Of a stretch of 64,000 bases of DNA, positions 3,056 through 51,810 are shown piece after piece. The first letter of the stretch is position 1, and each line of letters opens with the position of its first letter. The notes under the pieces were generated by a model, which saw nothing but the letters and a program-made list of their open reading frames with translations, had not been told where the DNA came from and made no database searches. The position numbers were made by a program, and so were the translations under genes. This DNA is from Candidatus Moraniibacteriota bacterium (lineage in GTDB: Bacteria > Patescibacteriota > Minisyncoccia > Moranbacterales > UBA1568), in the NCBI GenBank assembly GCA_016182385.1, contig JACPGV010000007.1, positions 12,147 through 76,146 of the forward strand. The letters are read 5' to 3'.

Positions 3056-3946
3056 TTATGACAGAGATAGTCCTTTCAAATAAGATCGCAATTTCTCACC
3101 TACTTCCGGATGCTTAAGACCCAAATGAATGGTCGCTTGTAAAAAATTGAACTTATCGCCCGTATCGAGCCACATCCCCTCAAGCATTCGTCCGTACATC
3201 GGTCGCTTTTTCTCAAGCATGAGATCAAAAGCATCCGCCAATCTGATTTCGCCCGACTTACCGGAATCCATCGACGCGAGTGTCTCAAATACTTCACGCG
3301 TAATAATATATTTTCCTACCGCTACCGCCCGACTGGGGGCATTTTCCGGCTTCGGTTTTTCCACGATATGCGTCACTTTCCAGTCGCGTCCGGTCATCTG
3401 TTCGCCGCCGATCACGCCGAATTTTGATACATCTTCAAACGCTACCTCAGACAATCCGATGATCGGCGCTTGATGTTCTTCGTATGCCTCAATAAGCTGT
3501 TTGGCTGCCGGTACCACGCTATCATAAATACAATCACCAAAAATCACGAGAACCGATTCATCATCATCAACGAGATGCGCTGCTTGAAGAAGTGCGTGTC
3601 CGTCACCAAGCGGAACGGGCTGACGCACATAAGAAAACCTCGCCAATCCGGAAATCCTCTGAACTGTTTCAAGCAAATCATGCTTGTTTTTTTCAACCAA
3701 TGTCTCTTCAAGCTCGTAAGAAACATCAAAATGATCCTCGATGGCGCGTTTTCCACGACCGGTGACAAAAATAATTTCTTCAATACCCGATGCCACTGCT
3801 TCCTCTACCAAATATTGCACCACCGGTTTATCAACGACTGGCAACATCTCTTTTGGTTGCGCCTTGGTAGCCGGTAAAAAACGCGTGCCAAAACCCGCGA
3901 CTGGCAAAATAGCTTTTTTGATTTTTCTCGGTTGACTGCTTTGCAT
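3056..3946 (-). CDS. galU: UTP-glucose-1-phosphate uridylyltransferase
   Basis: KAILPVAGFGTRFLPATKAQPKEMLPVVDKP motif. Start placed at MQSSQPRKIKK to avoid overlap with rfbA. Confidence 0.9.
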   Translation of the reverse strand: MQSSQPRKIKKAILPVAGFGTRFLPATKAQPKEMLPVVDKPVVQYLVEEAVASGIEEIIFVTGRGKRAIEDHFDVSYELEETLVEKNKHDLLETVQRISGLARFSYVRQPVPLGDGHALLQAAHLVDDDESVLVIFGDCIYDSVVPAAKQLIEAYEEHQAPIIGLSEVAFEDVSKFGVIGGEQMTGRDWKVTHIVEKPKPENAPSRAVAVGKYIITREVFETLASMDSGKSGEIRLADAFDLMLEKKRPMYGRMLEGMWLDTGDKFNFLQATIHLGLKHPEVGEKLRSYLKGLSLS

Positions 3947-3962
3947 ATGTTTTTTCAAAAAA

Positions 3963-4757
3963 TTATTTTTTAAGAGAAATGATTTTCTTGAATTCTCCAG
4001 TAAACTCCACAATAGCCTCATTGATGCGCGAATCAAAACGCTCGGAAAAACGATGTTCTCTCACATACGCACTCGCCTCAAAAAGTGATTCGTGCGTCCC
4101 GGTATCAAAATAAGCGCCGGTAATCACGCGTACATCAAGCATCTCTTTAGCGAGATAGTGACGATGCAAATCAGTGATCTCGAGCTCTCCTCGTTCCGAC
4201 GGCACAAGCCCTTTGGCTATCTCCACCACGCTCGAATCGAAAATATAAATACCGGGAATAGCAAAATGACTTTTTGGTTGCGCGGGTTTTTCTTCAATCG
4301 AAATCGCTTTTCCCTTTGTGTCAAACTCCACTACGCCGAAACGCTCCGGATCCGGCACTTCCTTGGCAAAAATACGCCCGCCCTTCTCAAATGTCCGAAT
4401 AGCCTCGGTGAAATCGTCCTCAAAAATATTGTCACCAAGCACTAGTGTCGTCGCCTCGCCATCGATGAAATCCTCCGCAAGAATGAATGCTTCCGCGAGT
4501 CCCCGCGGCGATTTTTGGACGACGAACGAGAGATTGATACCAAATTTCCGGAACATCGAACCGAGCAAATTCAAAAAATGTCCCGAATGATCCGGCGCCA
4601 CGATGATGAGGATGTCCGTGATCCCCGCTTGAATGAGTGTGTTGAGCGGATAAAAGATCATCGGTCGATCATAGACCGGTAGCAATTGCTTGGAAGTGAT
4701 GGCGGTGAGCGGCAGGAGCCGCGTACCGGTTCCGCCGGCGAGAATGATTCCTTTCAT
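3963..4757 (-). CDS. rfbA: glucose-1-phosphate thymidylyltransferase
   Basis: MKGIILAGGTGTRLLPLT N-terminal nucleotidyltransferase signature. Part of the dTDP-rhamnose pathway together with rfbBCD nearby. Confidence 0.9.
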   Translation of the reverse strand: MKGIILAGGTGTRLLPLTAITSKQLLPVYDRPMIFYPLNTLIQAGITDILIIVAPDHSGHFLNLLGSMFRKFGINLSFVVQKSPRGLAEAFILAEDFIDGEATTLVLGDNIFEDDFTEAIRTFEKGGRIFAKEVPDPERFGVVEFDTKGKAISIEEKPAQPKSHFAIPGIYIFDSSVVEIAKGLVPSERGELEITDLHRHYLAKEMLDVRVITGAYFDTGTHESLFEASAYVREHRFSERFDSRINEAIVEFTGEFKKIISLKK

Positions 4758-4761
4758 ACGT

Positions 4762-6000
4762 TTATTTTTTATACACTGGAAATCGTTTACAAAGACTTTT
4801 CACCTCTTTTCGGATGTTTCCCAATACTTTCTTGTCACCGTTTGAACGCAATGTCTCCTCAATAAAACCCGCGAGTATCTTCATTTCTTTTTCTTTCATC
4901 CCCCGTGTCGTGACAGCCGGCACACCGATACGCACACCCGAAGGGTCGAGCGGACCCCGTGGATCATCCGGAATGACGTTTTTGTTGATCGTAATCCCGA
5001 CTTCATCCAAAAGTTTTTCCGCTTCTTTGCCTGTGATTCCGTAACTCTTCACCGTATCGATGACCAACATATGATTTTCGGTCGTCCCACCAAAAAGAAT
5101 TATCACGCCACATTTGGCTAATTTTTTTTCAAGCGTTTTGGCATTTTTTAAAATCTGTCTGGCATATTTTTTGAAATCAGAACGAAGCGCTTCGCCAAAC
5201 GCTACGGCTTTCGCGGCGATTGTATGCATATGTGGGCCACCTTGCGTTCCCGGAAAAACCGCCTTATCGATCGCTTTGGCATACTGCTCGCGGCACAAAA
5301 TCAATCCCCCGCGCGGACCACGCAAAGTCTTGTGTGTCGTCGCCGTCACGATATCGAAATATGGTACCGGATTCGGAAGCACACCCCCGGCAACAAGACC
5401 AGCAATATGTGCCATATCCATCATCGAGAGCGCACCTACCTTTCTTGCGATTGCCGTAAATTTCTCATAATCGATCTGTCGCGTATACGAGGAAAACCCC
5501 GCGAGCATCAACTTCGGTTTCGTTTCTTTCGCTAATTTTTCCAATTTCTTATAATCAATCGTCCCGTCCGCTTCGGTCTTGTACCGAACGAAGTTATACA
5601 CTTTCGCCGGAAGCGTCACCGGATGCCCGTGCGTCAAATGTCCACCGTGCGAGAGATCCATCCCGAGCACCGTGTCATCTGGTTCGAGAAGCGCCGCATA
5701 AACGGCCAAGTTGGCCTGTGCCCCCGAATGTGGCTGGACATTCGCGTGTTCCGCGCCAAAAAGTTTTTTCGCCCGATCGATAGCCAAAGTCTCCACGACA
5801 TCCGTCCATTCCTGTCCGCCGTAATAACGCCGACCTGGATACCCTTCGGAATACTTGTTCGTAAAAACCGTCCCGAGCGCCTCGAGCACCGCTTTCGACA
5901 CGTAATTTTCCGATGCTATCATTTCCAGACCTTCTTCCTGTCGCTTCTCTTCACCAAGAATCGCGCGCCACACTTCTTTATCATTTTTTTTATGCGCCAT
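4762..6000 (-). CDS. glyA: serine hydroxymethyltransferase
   Basis: [11 protein letters not shown] and the PLP-lysine region ([12 protein letters not shown]) are present. Start chosen at MAHKK by alignment to canonical GlyA N-termini. Confidence 0.95.
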
Positions 6001-6077
6001 AAATAAAGCAAAAATATCCGTCATGGAGATTACAAATATATTTTTATCCTAGCAAAAAAAGCCACCCACCGCACCAT

Positions 6078-6106
6078 TGACAGAATGTCAAAAAAGGTGT
6101 ATAATT
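6078..6106 (+). promoter_or_regulatory. sigma70-type promoter TTGACA-17-TATAAT
   Basis: Exact consensus -35 and -10 hexamers with a 17-nt spacer, upstream of the GC-rich ORF. Confidence 0.5.
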
Positions 6107-6175
6107 AACGTTTCAGAATGCACCACATTCTGGGCATGTACCTGAACAATTTTTTTTTTTTGATCCGTAGAAGTT

Positions 6176-7177
6176 TTGCGGATCGATGAAGTTTTGCCCT
6201 GCGGCATCGGGCGTGAAGAAAGTAGGCGTACCAGCGCCTTCAAATCCAAACATTCCTGCGTGCCTGGCATTGCACGTGGGAAAAGGAATCAAATGAAAAA
6301 AGTAACAATTGAACGCGGCCGCACGGTTGCGTTTGAAGATCTTCCCGCAAGGTCGATCGCCCTGGACGGGTATTGTCAAGGACCCGATGTCGACGTTGAG
6401 AACCAGCGGTTCTCGTTTGACCACCATGACAAGTGCCTTCGTCTTGTGACGAAGGCCACTTGCGAACAGGTCCTGGATGCACTCCTCCTAGGGCTCGATC
6501 CGACCGCGTTCACGATTTTCGTGAACGATGTTGACGGCGACACCGTTCTTTCGGTGTGGTTACTCCGCAACTCAAAGCGGGCCGCCGAAAAAACGGTGCG
6601 AGAGCTGGTTGCAACCGTGGGCGGTATCGATGCTCACGGCCCGGCCTACCCGGCAATCGACAATGCTCTGGCGGAGAAATTCTTCCAGGGCGTTATGAAG
6701 CCCGAGCTCGATCTGCGGCGCACGAAACAGTACGCAACGTGCGATCTCCAGACGCTCCTCGAACAATGCGTCGAAAATATCGACGCGTTACTCGCGGGAA
6801 AAATCGAGCTCGCCTCGAAAATGGAGCGTCATTTTGAAACCACTCACTGCGGTAGCGGCTGGGTGATGGCAAAGTCGGACGACTTCATTTTCGATCTCTT
6901 GTACGCGGAGGGGTACACTCGTGCCATTGCGTACAAGATTCTTCCCGACGGATCAGTGAACTATACCGTCGGCAAGAAATCCGAGCTGGTCGGCAAATTT
7001 CCCGTCGGCCCCGGTTCCAAGGTGAACTCCATCCTCTACGCGCTCAATGAGCGGGAAACGGGATGGGGAGGCGGTTCAACGATCGGTGGCTCCCCGCGCA
7101 ATGCGGATGGTTCCCGATCACGCCTTACCCCCGACGAGGTTTTTGAAATCGTCGAGAGAGTGGTGATGGAGGGATAA
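6176..7177 (+). CDS. hypothetical protein; GC-rich, likely horizontally acquired
   Basis: ORF with visibly higher GC than its neighbours. Alternative ATG start at 6293. Contains DHH-like and GGGS motifs in a non-canonical order, so no confident family call. Confidence 0.55.
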   Translation: MRIDEVLPCGIGREESRRTSAFKSKHSCVPGIARGKRNQMKKVTIERGRTVAFEDLPARSIALDGYCQGPDVDVENQRFSFDHHDKCLRLVTKATCEQVLDALLLGLDPTAFTIFVNDVDGDTVLSVWLLRNSKRAAEKTVRELVATVGGIDAHGPAYPAIDNALAEKFFQGVMKPELDLRRTKQYATCDLQTLLEQCVENIDALLAGKIELASKMERHFETTHCGSGWVMAKSDDFIFDLLYAEGYTRAIAYKILPDGSVNYTVGKKSELVGKFPVGPGSKVNSILYALNERETGWGGGSTIGGSPRNADGSRSRLTPDEVFEIVERVVMEG

Positions 7178-7254
7178 ATAAAGTCACCACACCGCCCAAC
7201 CTATCGGCTAATCACGATAGTGACTAGTCGACTGATGAATTAAGGAACTCATTA

Positions 7255-7316
7255 CCGCCACGCGGATACCCTGCGCAACACGCATCGGTATCCCGGGGCG
7301 GTTTTCTTTTTTTTAA
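7255..7316 (+). terminator. rho-independent terminator
   Basis: Long GC hairpin ccgccacgcggatacc...ggtatcccggggcgg followed by a T-run. Confidence 0.6.
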
Positions 7317-7353
7317 TTTCATCCCCCACTCATTTTTTAATCAAAACCACTTA

Positions 7354-7380
7354 TCTTACTATTTTCGCGATTGCGTAAAT
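7354..7380. repeat. left arm of a perfect 27-bp inverted repeat
   Basis: tcttactattttcgcgattgcgtaaat. Its exact reverse complement lies at 8157-8183. Confidence 0.85.
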
Positions 7381-7441
7381 AGTAAGACTTTTATATACTC
7401 TAAATATAATATACTTTTCATCTATATAGACACGAAAAGAT

Positions 7442-8128
7442 ATGGCACGATCTACGAATCATACAAAGAAACAGGTGTCCCGCAATAAAAAGAAAGTTCA
7501 GCTCCCGAAAAAATTTCTCGAACGAGCGGATGATTTCCTGCTTTCCGATACGCTATCGGCTACAGCGACGAAGTTTTTCCTCGTTCTCCTTACTCTGGGT
7601 GGAGTAGCATTTCTCGGAGCAACAGTTCCTGGTCTCATAAAAGCTGCTGACATTTTCAGACATCGTCGAGGAAGCAGACGAAAAACTGACAATGATTTTT
7701 CAAAGCGATCGATTACCAATTCCATCGCCTACATGAAGAAGCATAAACTCGTCAAAATATTGAAAGATGCTCACGGTAAGACCACGATAGTCCTGACAAA
7801 CAAAGGAAGACGTCGGGTAGCGGAATATTCTCTCGAGATGGTAGAAATTAAGAAGCCGACGCGTTGGGACGGAAAATGGCGGGTGCTCATATTCGATATC
7901 CCATCCAATTCAAAAGTAAACACATATGCCCGTGATGCCTTGCGGAACAAAATCAAGGAACTCGGCTTCTGCCAAATCCAAAAAAGTGTCTGGGCTCATC
8001 CTTATGATTGTGAGAATGAAATCCTTTTCATTGCTGAAATGTTCGGGATACAGAAATATATAGAAATCCTCACTGTAGAACGGATGCTCCACGAAAAGTT
8101 AGTTCGTGAAAGATTTCCAAAACTTTAG
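7442..8128 (+). CDS. PaaX-like transcriptional regulator with an N-terminal TM helix
   Basis: Basic N-terminus, TM helix FFLVLLTLGGVAFLGATV, a winged-helix-like segment, and a C-terminal WDGKWRVLIFDIPSNSKVNTYARDALRNKIKELGFCQIQKSVWAHP resembling PaaX_C/Cas2-like folds. A TATAAT -10 element lies upstream. Confidence 0.5.
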   Translation: MARSTNHTKKQVSRNKKKVQLPKKFLERADDFLLSDTLSATATKFFLVLLTLGGVAFLGATVPGLIKAADIFRHRRGSRRKTDNDFSKRSITNSIAYMKKHKLVKILKDAHGKTTIVLTNKGRRRVAEYSLEMVEIKKPTRWDGKWRVLIFDIPSNSKVNTYARDALRNKIKELGFCQIQKSVWAHPYDCENEILFIAEMFGIQKYIEILTVERMLHEKLVRERFPKL

Positions 8129-8156
8129 ATTCTCAGTGTTTTAAAAAAATCTTACA

Positions 8157-8183
8157 ATTTACGCAATCGCGAAAATAGTAAGA
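8157..8183. repeat. right arm of the 27-bp inverted repeat
   Basis: atttacgcaatcgcgaaaatagtaaga is the exact reverse complement of 7354-7380. It lies between the convergent ends of the regulator gene and rfbD. Confidence 0.85.
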
Positions 8184-8212
8184 CTATAAACAAACTGATC
8201 GCAAACCAGGTC

Positions 8213-9097
8213 TTAAGAAAACAAAGACTCCGTACCTCCCTTCAAAAACTTCTCCAGCGCTTCTTGATACGGACGGAGCGGAATAAATTTGGTATTGCGG
8301 AGCGTCGAATATTTGGGTCGCTTGGCGGGGCGAGGAAATGCATCGGCTGAAACCGGTTTTACAACGATATCCATCTCCGCCAACCGGAACAATTCCTGTG
8401 CCGCCCCGTACCATGTCGCAACACCCTCGTTCACCAAATGATAGATACCGTACGGCTTCTGATACATCTCGAGCACCTTGCTCGCGAGCGCCAGATCCGG
8501 CGCGTACGTGAAACAACTCTTCTCGTCATCGACGACCGTCACTTCTTTTTTGTCCTTCGCCACTTCAAGCATTTTCTCGAAAAAACTCTTCTTCCCGACC
8601 GCGGACGACGCCGGCTTGCCGAACAATTTCGACAAACGAATAAGATAATATTTTTCACCTTCCGCAATGACGTTTTTCTCCCCTTCCCATTTGCTTCTGC
8701 CATACCGAGAGATCGGTCGCGGTTCGGCATCCTCGGCATAACCGTCCGCATTCTCGCCATCAAAGACATAGTCCGAAGAATAATGAACGAACGTCCTATC
8801 GAGCTCTTTTGCCAGTCGCGCAAGAAATCCCGGAACATCGGCATTGAGCTTGATCGCCTTCGCGTATTCCTCCTCGTTTTCCTCGCACTGATCAACCGCG
8901 TTGTACGCCACAGCGTTTATAATAACCGCTGGCGCATACTCGCGGATCTTTTTTTCCGCCACAGAAAAATCCGTAAGATCAATCTCCTCATAGTCCCAGC
9001 CCGCGACCTCATATCCTTCGTCCTCACGGTAAACACGCACGAGCTCCTGCCCGAGCATTCCCTTCGCTCCGAGAATCAAGACTTTCCTCTTTTCCAT
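8213..9097 (-). CDS. rfbD: dTDP-4-dehydrorhamnose reductase
   Basis: MEKRKVLILGAKGMLGQ Rossmann N-terminus. RmlD family by length and context. Confidence 0.9.
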   Translation of the reverse strand: MEKRKVLILGAKGMLGQELVRVYREDEGYEVAGWDYEEIDLTDFSVAEKKIREYAPAVIINAVAYNAVDQCEENEEEYAKAIKLNADVPGFLARLAKELDRTFVHYSSDYVFDGENADGYAEDAEPRPISRYGRSKWEGEKNVIAEGEKYYLIRLSKLFGKPASSAVGKKSFFEKMLEVAKDKKEVTVVDDEKSCFTYAPDLALASKVLEMYQKPYGIYHLVNEGVATWYGAAQELFRLAEMDIVVKPVSADAFPRPAKRPKYSTLRNTKFIPLRPYQEALEKFLKGGTESLFS

Positions 9098-9100
9098 AGA

Positions 9101-10105
9101 CTAACGTTTCTGATACTGCTTTTCATAATACTTTTCATATTCGCCGCTCTTCATATTCTTCCACCAGACTTCGTTTTCTTTGAACCAAGCCACCGTATTC
9201 TTAAGACCTTCTTCGAGCGTGACGGACGGACGCCAACCAAGCTCTCGTTCTATTTTCGAAAAATCAATGGCGTAGCGGCGATCGTGACCCGCGCGATCCT
9301 TCACATATTCGATGGAACTTTCATCCTTGCCAAGCGCCGAAAGGAGCTGTTTCACAATCCAGATATTCGGTCGCTCACCATTCCCGCCTACGCAGTAGGT
9401 TTCACCGATCTTCCCCTGCCTAAGGACAAGATCGATCGCCCGACAATGATCCGATACATACAGCCAATCGCGTACCTGCATACCATCGCCATAGACCGGC
9501 ACTTTCTTTCCCTCAAAAAGATTGGTAATAATCAATGGTATAAATTTTTCTGGACAAGCATATGGCCCGTAATTATTTGAGCAATTAGAAATAGTGACCG
9601 GCAGATTATAGGTATGGAAATACGCGCGCACGAGATGATCCGACGAGGCTTTCGATGCACTATACGGGCTCCGCGGATCATACGGCGTCCTCTCATTGAA
9701 GGGCGCGTCATCCAAACCGAGACTGCCAAAAACCTCATCGGTCGAAACGTGATGAAAACGCTTGCCGTGTTTTTTTGCCGCCTCAAGTAAAACGTACGTC
9801 CCCCGCACATTGGTTTCGATAAAAGCGCTCGGATCAAGAATGGAGCGATCGACATGAGACTCGGCCGCAAAATGGACGATCGCATCGCACTCGGCCACGA
9901 GCGGCTCGACAAGAGCGGCGTCCGTGATACTGCCCTTCACGAAGCGATACCGTGGATCATCTTTCCACACCGCGAGATTCTCGAGGTTGCTCGCGTAGGT
10001 CAGGAGATCGAGATTGATCACCTCGTCCTTTGGATACGTTCCAAGGATAAAATGAATAAAATTGCTCCCGATAAATCCCGCTCCGCCAGTAACAAGTATT
10101 TTCAT
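9101..10105 (-). CDS. rfbB: dTDP-glucose 4,6-dehydratase
   Basis: MKILVTGGAGFIGSNF. SDR-type dehydratase with a YxxxK catalytic region. Confidence 0.95.
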   Translation of the reverse strand: MKILVTGGAGFIGSNFIHFILGTYPKDEVINLDLLTYASNLENLAVWKDDPRYRFVKGSITDAALVEPLVAECDAIVHFAAESHVDRSILDPSAFIETNVRGTYVLLEAAKKHGKRFHHVSTDEVFGSLGLDDAPFNERTPYDPRSPYSASKASSDHLVRAYFHTYNLPVTISNCSNNYGPYACPEKFIPLIITNLFEGKKVPVYGDGMQVRDWLYVSDHCRAIDLVLRQGKIGETYCVGGNGERPNIWIVKQLLSALGKDESSIEYVKDRAGHDRRYAIDFSKIERELGWRPSVTLEEGLKNTVAWFKENEVWWKNMKSGEYEKYYEKQYQKR

Positions 10106-10282
10106 AATTTGTTCTAATTTTATAAATCTCTCTTTTCATTCAGCCAGCAACCTTTCGAAGAATCACTCGTAAGACCCGACACGTCTTATTCGTTACGCTT
10201 TCGTCCTCGCTCTCTGCAATGAATCCATTGCAGAACCGTGCCCGCTCGAACTCCAGAGTTTCTTTGAAAAGGTTCTAGTTTC

Positions 10283-10348
10283 AGAAAAAAAATTGGTAAT
10301 AAAAAGCCGCGACCCTTCCAGTATACCAGATACCGGAAAAGCCGCGGC
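10283..10348 (-). terminator. probable intrinsic terminator downstream of rfbC
   Basis: Imperfect GC hairpin gccgcggc...gtcgcggc followed by a T-run on the minus strand. Confidence 0.4.
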
Positions 10349-10356
10349 CAGAAGCG

Positions 10357-10923
10357 TTAGTGTTCCTCGTTGTAAACAAATGCGTCAACAATCTCGCTCA
10401 AAGGTGGTGACGCCGCATCTTTCGAAGAAACTATCGGGGTGACATCTTTCGGCCAGGCGATATCCAAAGCCGGATCATTCCAAAGAATACCTCGATCCGA
10501 TTCTTTGTGATACAGGCCGGTCACTTTGTACGTGAAAATAGTATTATCGACAAGTGACATAAAGGCATGCGCGAATCCGGCCGGAATCCAGAATTGCTTA
10601 TGATTCACCCCTGAAAGTTCCACCATCACGTGCCTGCCGTATGTCGGCGAACCGACACGGATGTCTACCGCCACATCAAGCACGCGCCCACACAAAACTT
10701 GCACGAGTTTTCCTTGTTCAAAGGGCCTTGCCTGATAATGAAGCCCGCGCACGACGCCCCGTTTCGACTTGGAAACGTTGTCTTGGACGAAACGATCAGC
10801 CGGAATACCAAGTTTTTGGTATCGCTCCACGCTAAAAGATTCGAAAAAACAACCACGATCATCGATAAAAACTTCTGGCTGTAAAAGAACAGGTCCATCA
10901 ATAAAAAAGCGTTTTGTTTCCAT
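10357..10923 (-). CDS. rfbC: dTDP-4-dehydrorhamnose 3,5-epimerase
   Basis: RGLHYQ motif, cupin fold. Start chosen at METKRFF. Confidence 0.9.
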   Translation of the reverse strand: METKRFFIDGPVLLQPEVFIDDRGCFFESFSVERYQKLGIPADRFVQDNVSKSKRGVVRGLHYQARPFEQGKLVQVLCGRVLDVAVDIRVGSPTYGRHVMVELSGVNHKQFWIPAGFAHAFMSLVDNTIFTYKVTGLYHKESDRGILWNDPALDIAWPKDVTPIVSSKDAASPPLSEIVDAFVYNEEH

Positions 10924-11018
10924 AGCTTTCTCCTCCAAAAAATTACGGAATGGCATTATCCTATCACGCCACCCAAAAAAAACAAGACCCCGGAACAACC
11001 GGGGTCTTTCTGTATCAA

Positions 11019-11345
11019 TCAAATCTGGATGTCATTCATGACATCATCAAGAGTCTTTTTTTCCTCTGTCGCCGGACGCTCTTCACGTGGCGGACGCTCT
11101 GAACCTTCCGGTTCATTGATTTTCAAATTTACTCGGGCGTTGTTACGAGCACCAATAACACGCAAAAGTGTACGGAGCGCCTTGGCAGTCATACCCTCAC
11201 GGCCAATCACCATACCCATATCTTTTGGGTTCACATCAAGGGTAATCAACACTCCCATCTCATCAATCTTTCTTTCGACCTTCACATCATCCGGATTATC
11301 AACGAGCATTTTTACGACATACTCGATAAAATCCCTATCCTTCAT
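11019..11345 (-). CDS. KH-domain RNA-binding protein (KhpA-like)
   Basis: GMVIGREGMTAKALRTLLRV KH motif, with a charged C-terminal tail. Confidence 0.7.
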   Translation of the reverse strand: MKDRDFIEYVVKMLVDNPDDVKVERKIDEMGVLITLDVNPKDMGMVIGREGMTAKALRTLLRVIGARNNARVNLKINEPEGSERPPREERPATEEKKTLDDVMNDIQI

Positions 11346-21601: not shown

Positions 21602-21645
21602 CATAACTATACTTTTCTTGCAATTGCAAGAAAAGTATAGTTATG
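21602..21645 (-). terminator. 44-bp perfect palindrome; likely terminator of the upstream MTTase gene
   Basis: cataactatacttttcttgcaattgcaagaaaagtatagttatg is exactly self-complementary. On the minus strand it is followed by UGUUUUUGG. Confidence 0.55.
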
Positions 21646-51681: not shown

Positions 51682-51778
51682 GCCTTGTCACAAAAAGCAG
51701 AATACTTAAACAAAATTTTTCAAAAGCATTTCTCTATATCCCCAAACACCACTCAAAAAACTCCCACGCTCTCAAAAA

Positions 51779-51810
51779 CCACGGCCGTGGTTTTTGAGAG
51801 CAAGAAAAAA
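51779..51810. repeat. 32-bp perfect palindrome CTCTCAAAAACCACGGCCGTGGTTTTTGAGAG (copy 2); likely a bidirectional terminator
   Basis: Exactly self-complementary. Shares its core with 33605-33625. Confidence 0.55.

Follow-up and report, generated by a model that had tools for sequence, protein, structure and literature searches.

Two palindromes that bracket the gene of a PaaX-like protein in a Candidatus Moraniibacteriota bacterium are probably its operators

The window studied here is a stretch of 64,000 nucleotides from contig JACPGV010000007.1 (positions 12,147 to 76,146, forward strand) of the Candidatus Moraniibacteriota bacterium assembly GCA_016182385.1. Within it, the gene at 7442–8128 specifies a PaaX-like protein with a conserved hydrophobic segment, and it is enclosed by two 34-bp near-palindromes. 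On comparative grounds we consider these palindromes to be probably the cognate operators of the protein encoded between them, through which it would regulate its own gene negatively. Such sites exist beyond what chance would give; throughout the protein family they keep their position, overlap promoters and vary in step with the recognition helix. The elements of the module are as follows.

7254–7314, plus strand: terminator-like, GC-rich three-part hairpin with a T-run, some 40 bp ahead of the left palindrome
7354–7387, no strand assigned: left palindrome, the proposed upstream operator, TCTTACTATTTTCGC-GATT-GCGTAAATAGTAAGA
7371–7376 and 7394–7399, plus strand: alternative promoter read from the sequence, TTGCGT and TATACT separated by 17 nt
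7382–7410, plus strand: putative promoter, with -35 GTAAGA (7382–7387), a 17-nt spacer and -10 TATAAT (7405–7410)
7442–8128, plus strand: gene for the 228-amino-acid protein, assigned from the Pfam match to PaaX_M, the AlphaFold2 model and a fold match
7574–7639, plus strand: residues 45–66, predicted hydrophobic anchor, assigned from hydrophobicity and charge statistics, with a basic N-terminal tail before it and a basic linker after it
7703–7837, plus strand: residues 88–132, minimal winged helix, from AlphaFold2 at moderate confidence and weak MarR matches
7859–8125, plus strand: residues 140–228, Cas2-like PaaX_M domain, with an AlphaFold2 predicted local distance difference test (pLDDT) score above 90
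8143–8149, minus strand: seven A residues on the plus strand, forming a T7 run after the right hairpin on the minus strand, terminator-like and facing rmlD-rmlB-rmlC
8150–8183, no strand assigned: right palindrome, the proposed downstream operator, TCTTACAATTTACGC-AATC-GCGAAAATAGTAAGA

The two palindromes share a 27-mer, TCTTACTATTTTCGCGATTGCGTAAAT, whose copy at 7354–7380 is the exact reverse complement of 8157–8183. A preliminary description of this DNA had reported this inverted repeat and the single open reading frame (ORF) that it encloses on the plus strand (7442–8128), and had proposed a search for further copies. Repeat and ORF were both confirmed: with up to three mismatches allowed, the 27-mer matched those two flanking copies and nothing else in the 64 kb, and it had matches in none of 100 dinucleotide-preserving shuffles. 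The 7-bp arms around an asymmetric core that had been described gave way to a different structure, since each copy is a 34-bp near-palindrome of 15-bp arms and a 4-bp centre; a direct 12-mer, aaatagtaagac, noted after each copy is indeed present but is merely the right arm of each palindrome. The left palindrome has arms at 7354–7368 and 7373–7387 (15 nt, 93%, one mismatch) around the centre GATT. The right one, which begins 21 bp past the stop codon, has two arm mismatches and the centre AATC. Their palindromic nature lets the two copies align in either orientation, as inverted repeats over 42 nt (93%) or as direct ones over 37 nt (86%). The outer boxes of the site, TCTTAC and GTAAGA, lie 22 bp apart (TCTTAC-N22-GTAAGA) and enclose the inner CGC and GCG. 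Neither a second paralogue nor extra half-sites were found in the window, where the unit is present once.

The left palindrome overlaps a plausible promoter. Its right arm contains the GTAAGA that, read directly from the sequence, would serve as the -35 element of 7382–7410. The statement that the left copy covers the -35 region of a TATAAT promoter is plausible by eye, but the consensus promoter scan did not call it. The same geometry is seen in locus L004 (TTGACT-17-TAAAAT), and in Moranbacteria-type loci generally the -35 element falls in the right outer box. In L049, L051 and L053 it is found in the inner right arm (TTGAAA or TTGAAT), 17 nt before TATAAT, and in L027, L032, L033 and L052 it is the left outer box, with the -10 element (TAGAAT or TAAAAT) in the right linker and the start codon following within 0–10 nt. 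The upstream palindrome thus overlaps core promoter elements in a register that depends on the lineage, as would be expected of a repressor operator rather than of a fixed promoter element.

This layout recurs throughout a large family. A search of 1.84 billion cluster representatives returned 1,156 clusters at 50% identity (E≤1e-30), a scan of one genome per species gave at least 586 confirmed relatives, and a metagenome scan for close relatives gave five with 32–36% identity. Viral contigs yielded one distant match, the family being essentially absent there. Eighty loci were kept for site analysis, most of them labelled as Patescibacteria-type metagenome-assembled genomes (MAGs) and about 12 otherwise ('uncultured Bdellovibrionales', 'uncultured Gammaproteobacteria'); some genomes hold several family copies. 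Within these 80 loci, 51 of the 109 long palindromes lie no more than 250 bp from the gene ends, in what amounts to about 7% of the sequence. By the matching criterion, palindromes that correspond to each other stand on both sides of the gene in 29 of 81 loci, and in those 29 the downstream copy lies 3–160 bp past the stop codon. Two tandem upstream copies are present in five loci.

The family palindromes measure 26–48 bp and have in common a GC-N4-GC centre with A/T-rich linkers. At position -3 a C was found in 25 of 25 lineages, and at -4 a G in 21 of 25. Positions -12 to -19 hold the outer boxes, which are specific to the lineage and follow the protein: a shared outer box goes with a near-identical recognition helix, for example TTAGTCAA with helices of the QIQNAVYNLKRRKL type, and GTCTTAC with SI(T/V)NSIAYMKK. 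Paralogues within one genome carry differing palindromes. Syntenic orthologues have their sites at the same positions with diverged outer boxes, and protein and site diverge together faster than the flanking genes.

The protein itself is identical to the hypothetical protein HYV45_02810 of a Candidatus Moranbacteria MAG. At E≤0.01 Pfam reported PaaX_M (PF20803) alone, over residues 140–215 (1.8e-19; 70 bits against a cut-off of 24), and the protein stops 13 residues beyond this Cas2-like domain; neither the N-terminal PaaX Pfam domain nor PaaX_C was reported at that threshold. PaaX_M was detected in 83 of 83 homologues. The PaaX equivalog model TIGR02277 scored 33.6 bits against a cut-off of 264.55, and the Cas2 model TIGR01573 18.6 bits against 24.5. 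An AlphaFold2 model was built on the 83 homologues, and in it residues 88–132 form a helix, a beta-hairpin wing and a further helix. The best fold match in the PDB is E. coli PaaX (8a39; E 7e-6 over 207 columns), followed by many Cas2 structures, and a profile search gave weak MarR matches at the recognition helix and wing as well as weak Cas2 matches. Scans with Pfam, NCBIfam, PADLOC and PHROGs found no transposase or recombinase domain in the protein, PADLOC and PHROGs returning partial Cas2 and weak matches only. The early characterisation of the product as a membrane-anchored PaaX-like protein, the anchor being a predicted one, was essentially right; its 'PaaX_C/Cas2-like C-terminal domain' does have a Cas2-like PaaX fold, but the domain is PaaX_M (PF20803) and not PaaX_C.

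The predicted anchor is present in all 83 aligned members as an uncharged stretch of 22.9 residues on average, with a Kyte-Doolittle mean of 2.12; the segment of the window protein is poorly modelled by AlphaFold2. Lysyl and arginyl residues number 4.75 on its C-terminal side and 1.69 on its N-terminal side, and the C-terminal flank is the more positive in 72 of the 83 members. By the positive-inside rule the topology would be N-out/C-in, with the DNA-binding part in the cytoplasm. In ToxR, CadC and TcpP one transmembrane helix keeps a DNA-binding domain attached to the membrane on its cytoplasmic side. A tether of this sort is predicted here too, but those proteins run from an N-terminal OmpR-type winged helix through the transmembrane helix to a large periplasmic sensor, whereas the window protein has a short N-terminal tail, the anchor and then a DNA-binding part of another fold, with no sensor domain.

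With the phenylacetyl-CoA-responsive PaaX of E. coli and Pseudomonas (PDB 8a39, 3l09) the protein shares the order of a winged helix and then a Cas2-like middle domain. E. coli PaaX binds the widely spaced inverted hexamers TGATTC-N27-GAATCA, and occludes and represses its own promoter Px (PMC9493321). The putative operator of the window, TCTTAC-N22-GTAAGA, is comparable: within 7354–7387, as in PaaX-type operators, inverted hexamers lie about 2.5–3 helical turns apart and overlap a promoter. Nevertheless, the protein is not a PaaX orthologue, as three of the four defining features of PaaX fail. It has 228 residues against about 305–315, carries a predicted hydrophobic anchor before the winged helix, and has neither the N-terminal PaaX Pfam domain nor the helical, effector-binding PaaX_C domain. 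No paa genes were found among the scanned neighbours, the homologues occupy varied housekeeping contexts, predicted operators stand on both sides of the gene, and the family is mostly found in Patescibacteria. At the level of DNA the protein probably works like PaaX.

The mechanism that we infer for the module involves binding, dimerisation, repression, looping or a roadblock, and a defined membrane topology. The two 34-bp palindromes would be binding sites for the protein encoded between them. Its Cas2-fold domain probably mediates dimerisation, the single hydrophobic helix would hold the factor at the inner face of the membrane, and as a dimer it would touch both the outer boxes (TCTTAC, GTAAGA) and the inner CGC and GCG. 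Occupancy of the upstream site, over the gene's own -35 element, would repress the gene, a negative autoregulation like that of PaaX at Px. The downstream site would be a second operator and may pair with the upstream one in a repression loop around the gene of about 800 bp. Alternatively, together with the T7 run of the opposite strand, it could block or terminate the convergent transcription of rmlDBC. An autoregulatory operator had been the fallback proposal of the preliminary description, and it is the one favoured by the comparative data, namely sites on both sides, promoter overlap and tracking of the recognition helix.

Several observations weigh against this proposal. Simple autoregulation needs no downstream site, so that its role, be it repression loop, roadblock or terminator, or something non-regulatory, is guesswork. 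In the 29 loci and the 64-kb window just three distal cognate copies were found; with sites nearly confined to the flanks of its own gene, a pure regulator would have no obvious output. About half of the family loci, two well-sampled members among them, have no clear palindrome. The -35 element of the window is weak (3/6), and AlphaFold2 confidence is low over the N-terminal third of the protein. The residue D152 (FDIP), which aligns with the beta1 active-site Asp of Cas2 (the YDV motif of a Sulfolobus Cas2), is invariant, and the Cas2-like domain has many further conserved polar residues, which hints at a catalytic or ligand role. Lastly, two contigs of MAG JAQTLF (L004 and L007) share the whole unit as a 97%-identical segment of 784 bp, at 3867–4650 in both. 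This segment ends 3–4 bp past the right palindrome and about 15–25 bp before the left one, amid unrelated flanks. The L007 copy is frameshifted (117-amino-acid ORF), and a 372-amino-acid ORF upstream of it runs into the left palindrome. A more unusual function is conceivable in view of the nearly flank-confined sites, the Cas2-type Asp and the rapid joint divergence of protein and site. We allow a limited chance that the module tethers chromosomal loci to the membrane or is a selfish, occasionally duplicating cassette with Asp-dependent DNA cleavage. In either event the only high-affinity targets of the protein may be its own flanking palindromes, and orthogonal pairs may coexist in one genome.

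The closest relative, L081 from a JGI metagenome, is 79% identical and lies among ABC-transporter, NUDIX, PBP and AlaRS genes and not beside rml genes. It carries GTCTTAC(A/T)AT.TTCGC-GATT-GCGAATATAGTAAGAC on either side of the gene, so that GTCTTAC as outer box and CGC as inner element are kept while the A/T linker varies; the counterpart of the left palindrome is at 4658–4693. DNA homology between the window and L081 stops exactly at the right palindrome (8184), but on the left side it reaches past the palindrome by about 100 bp, through the GC-rich hairpin of 7254–7314. This hairpin is about 80% conserved at the equivalent, non-syntenic position of L081 (4527–4590), with one compensatory pair, and probably shields the module from transcription entering from the left. 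The conserved unit of about 930 bp (7254–8184) consequently exceeds the palindrome-to-palindrome span. The A-run after the gene is likewise present in L081. Beyond the module, nearly identical strong promoters (TTGACAGAA-N-AAAA.AGGTGTATAAT) precede unrelated genes at 6078–6106 of the window and 4198–4226 of L081; they probably represent a consensus promoter typical of the lineage, its -10 element extended. A larger cassette had been considered on account of this 'TTGACAGAA...TGTATAAT' similarity, but a shared strong-promoter consensus was judged the better account.

That the palindromes are instead the ends of a self-contained mobile cassette of about 0.8–0.9 kb, moved by the host or with its own protein as nuclease or recombination factor, seems to us unlikely. 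The preliminary description had entertained a tiny mobile element with terminal inverted repeats, and some of the data agree with one: the duplicated unit of JAQTLF is bounded near its palindromes, the window and L081 are in unrelated neighbourhoods with homology ending at the right palindrome, the Cas2-type Asp is invariant, and cognate sites almost exclusively flank the gene. The resemblance extends to REP/RAYT and IS200/IS605 systems, in which one gene likewise lies between near-identical, hairpin-capable palindromes, but no HUH/Y1 domain is present here (no Y1_Tnp in Pfam, NCBIfam or PHROGs), nor is any other known transposase or recombinase domain, and the palindromes are not dispersed, the two in the 64 kb both being at the gene. 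The left palindrome is no terminus, given the homology beyond it, the orientation of the copies is mixed, and no target-site duplication was seen at the loci inspected. Contexts are moreover stable across samples. A palindrome-bearing homologue, P0065 (sites at 2890–2927 and 3676–3713 of L111), recurs identically and in the same context in 7 places from 16 contigs, and two other members, in 20 and 24 contigs, have a fixed context as well; syntenic orthologues keep the module vertically, and the family is essentially absent from viral contigs. Low GC was also considered as a sign of transfer and rejected, since a gene richer in AT than its flanks is the rule in the family (71 of 78 loci) and no mark of recent acquisition. 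Far more improbable is a lox-, dif- or hix-like pair with which a tyrosine or serine recombinase would invert or excise the gene, as had also been suggested. The window copies are indeed inverted around an asymmetric 4-bp centre (GATT and AATC), but the centres of L081 are in direct orientation, and across 29 modules 10 are direct, 5 inverted and 14 symmetric or undecidable. In most lineages the centre itself is symmetric (ATAT, AATT, GATC) and gives no directionality; as orientation varies across the family, it is the symmetric site and not its orientation that is conserved. The genes scanned in the first 24 kb include no recombinase, and the locus is identical base for base over 6,687 bp in two independent assemblies from other sequencing runs, neither of which contained an inverted isoform.

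A role of the palindromes as RNA or DNA structures needing no dedicated protein, such as terminators, stabilising stem-loops or insulators kept alike by gene conversion, strikes us as distinctly unlikely, although each copy has a stable predicted fold (-15.8 to -17.6 kcal/mol; z -4.1 to -5.6). The right copy is followed by T7 on the minus strand, where its fold reaches -16.3 kcal/mol (z = -4.4), and may well help to halt transcription coming from rmlDBC; at several loci the downstream copies lie between the stop codon and canonical terminators. Among arm mismatches the downstream copies show a weak excess of G.U pairs (14 vs 6, not significant) and the upstream copies no such bias (7 vs 6). 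The left copy, however, overlaps or precedes the promoter and is probably not transcribed from it, flanking T-runs are absent from the sense strand, and the canonical terminators of these genomes, with A-run, GC stem and T-run, look different. Structure leaves the GC-N4-GC core and the helix-tracking outer boxes unexplained, and Rfam found no family in 5900–8400, only sub-threshold noise. We regard as possible, though not likely, that the module is a locus-specific tether between DNA and membrane or a centromere-like device, with autoregulation as a by-product and with specificity and target inherited together as in parS/parB. ParB-parS and Noc-NBS are systems with palindromic sites at or near the gene of the binding protein, and Noc is also membrane-associated. 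The module resembles them in having palindromic sites beside the gene of the proposed binder, and differs in its unrelated fold, in sites of 34–46 bp against 16 bp and in that no ParA partner was seen. For a tether speak the predicted hydrophobic anchor, conserved in 83 of 83 members with charges that would place the DNA-binding part in the cytoplasm, targets essentially limited to the flanks of the protein's own gene, several orthogonal pairs of paralogue and site per genome, and the faster co-divergence of protein and site. This reading is, however, inferential throughout: neither a partition ATPase nor any other partner was seen beside the gene, sites went undetected in many members, and repression accounts for the promoter overlap more simply.

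Cas2 and VapD, ferredoxin-fold nucleases, are also pertinent to the protein of this module, as residues 140–228 have their fold and keep the invariant Asp at the 'YDV/FDI' motif. The Cas2 score is nonetheless below cut-off, a winged helix and a predicted anchor are joined to the domain, and there was no CRISPR or other repeat array in the 64 kb and no cas domain among 18 neighbouring proteins.

The genes around the module are the following.

3963–4757, minus strand: rmlA
4762–6024, minus strand: glyA
6293–7177, plus strand: conserved gene for a 294-amino-acid protein with no Pfam, NCBIfam or PHROG match
8213–11022, minus strand: rmlD, rmlB and rmlC, convergent with the PaaX-like gene

The rhamnose genes on the left are thus separated from rmlDBC by glyA, the gene of the 294-amino-acid protein and the PaaX-like gene. 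Farther out are glycosyltransferase genes and an mraZ-mraW-PBP-Mur cluster. The gene scan over the first 24 kb turned up neither a recombinase nor a transposase, and 1–20 kb gave no tRNA. The unit had been described as part of a GC-discordant insertion, which the composition contradicts: the PaaX-like gene has a GC content of 0.429 against a window mean of 0.447 (standard deviation 0.031, 700-bp windows), and 26% of the 700-bp windows are as low or lower. It is the neighbours that are GC-rich, the 6293–7177 gene with 0.56 (0.66 at third codon positions, GC3) and rmlD with 0.51.

Literature searches found no description of this PaaX_M family or of its self-bracketing layout, and the family-wide, rapidly co-evolving arrangement appears to be undescribed. 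The Patescibacteria, or candidate phyla radiation (CPR), have tiny genomes with few recognisable regulators, and their control of transcription is almost uncharted. Here a very large uncharacterised family is defined in which the probable DNA target of each member can be read from comparative genomics alone. It offers dozens of natural, putative protein–operator pairs that have the core in common and differ in their specificity boxes. Three matters are thereby opened to test: the code by which winged helices of the PaaX type recognise DNA (a review, PMC9493321, reports no protein–DNA structure for them), the working of a membrane-tethered factor whose sites bracket its own gene, and whether the Cas2 fold is structural or catalytic here. 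For the rhamnose locus, a suspected mobile element or invertible switch is removed. Should the module prove to be a tether, it would be a minimal device for chromosome organisation or segregation in the ultra-small cells of Patescibacteria.

A number of further observations were made in passing. Two nucleotidyl-transferase (RmlA-like) genes are adjacent in the window, at 3056–4036 and 3963–4757. The product of the 6293–7177 gene has 747 homologues at E≤1e-3, including records from outside the CPR (Chlorobiales, Dehalococcoidia); its best homologues are at most 69% identical and in unrelated contexts, and one relative of the gene sits amid many small ORFs, in a phage- or island-like setting.

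Three contigs of the site analysis terminate in or at a family palindrome (L002, end 4678; L010, end 4774; L082, end 2100). These ends were considered as evidence of multiple copies, a notion rejected in favour of the simpler one of an assembly break. Long inverted repeats by themselves break de Bruijn assemblies, and short-read MAGs probably contain too few of the palindrome modules, or truncated ones.

Members of the family often adjoin genes for TrmB-family regulators and for endonuclease IV, UDG and NUDIX proteins, such repair-type neighbours being found at L093–L100 (the P0064 locus), L008, L021, L076 and L081. At L076 the cognate palindromes (4597–4638 and 5655–5698) enclose a probable NUDIX-like ORF, judged by eye. 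In the window, a perfect 44-bp palindrome, CATAACTATACTTTTCTTGCAATTGCAAGAAAAGTATAGTTATG, is present at 21602–21645 with a family-type centre, GCAATTGC, and a half-site that resembles that of the L001 module. No PaaX_M gene stands beside it; it lies 50–93 bp upstream of the start of xth (exonuclease III, minus strand) and immediately precedes a promoter-like TTGGTC...TGATAAT stretch, and may serve as the orphan operator of a paralogue whose gene lies beyond the window. The link to base-excision repair that these neighbours and the site before xth bring to mind is anecdotal. A further perfect palindrome of 34 bp, GCTCTCAAAAACCACGGCCGTGGTTTTTGAGAGC, at 51768–51801, consists of an A-run, a GC stem and a T-run and lies upstream of a gene whose 279-amino-acid product has a hydrophobic N-terminus. 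Its appearance is that of a bidirectional intrinsic terminator, unrelated to the PaaX-like module.

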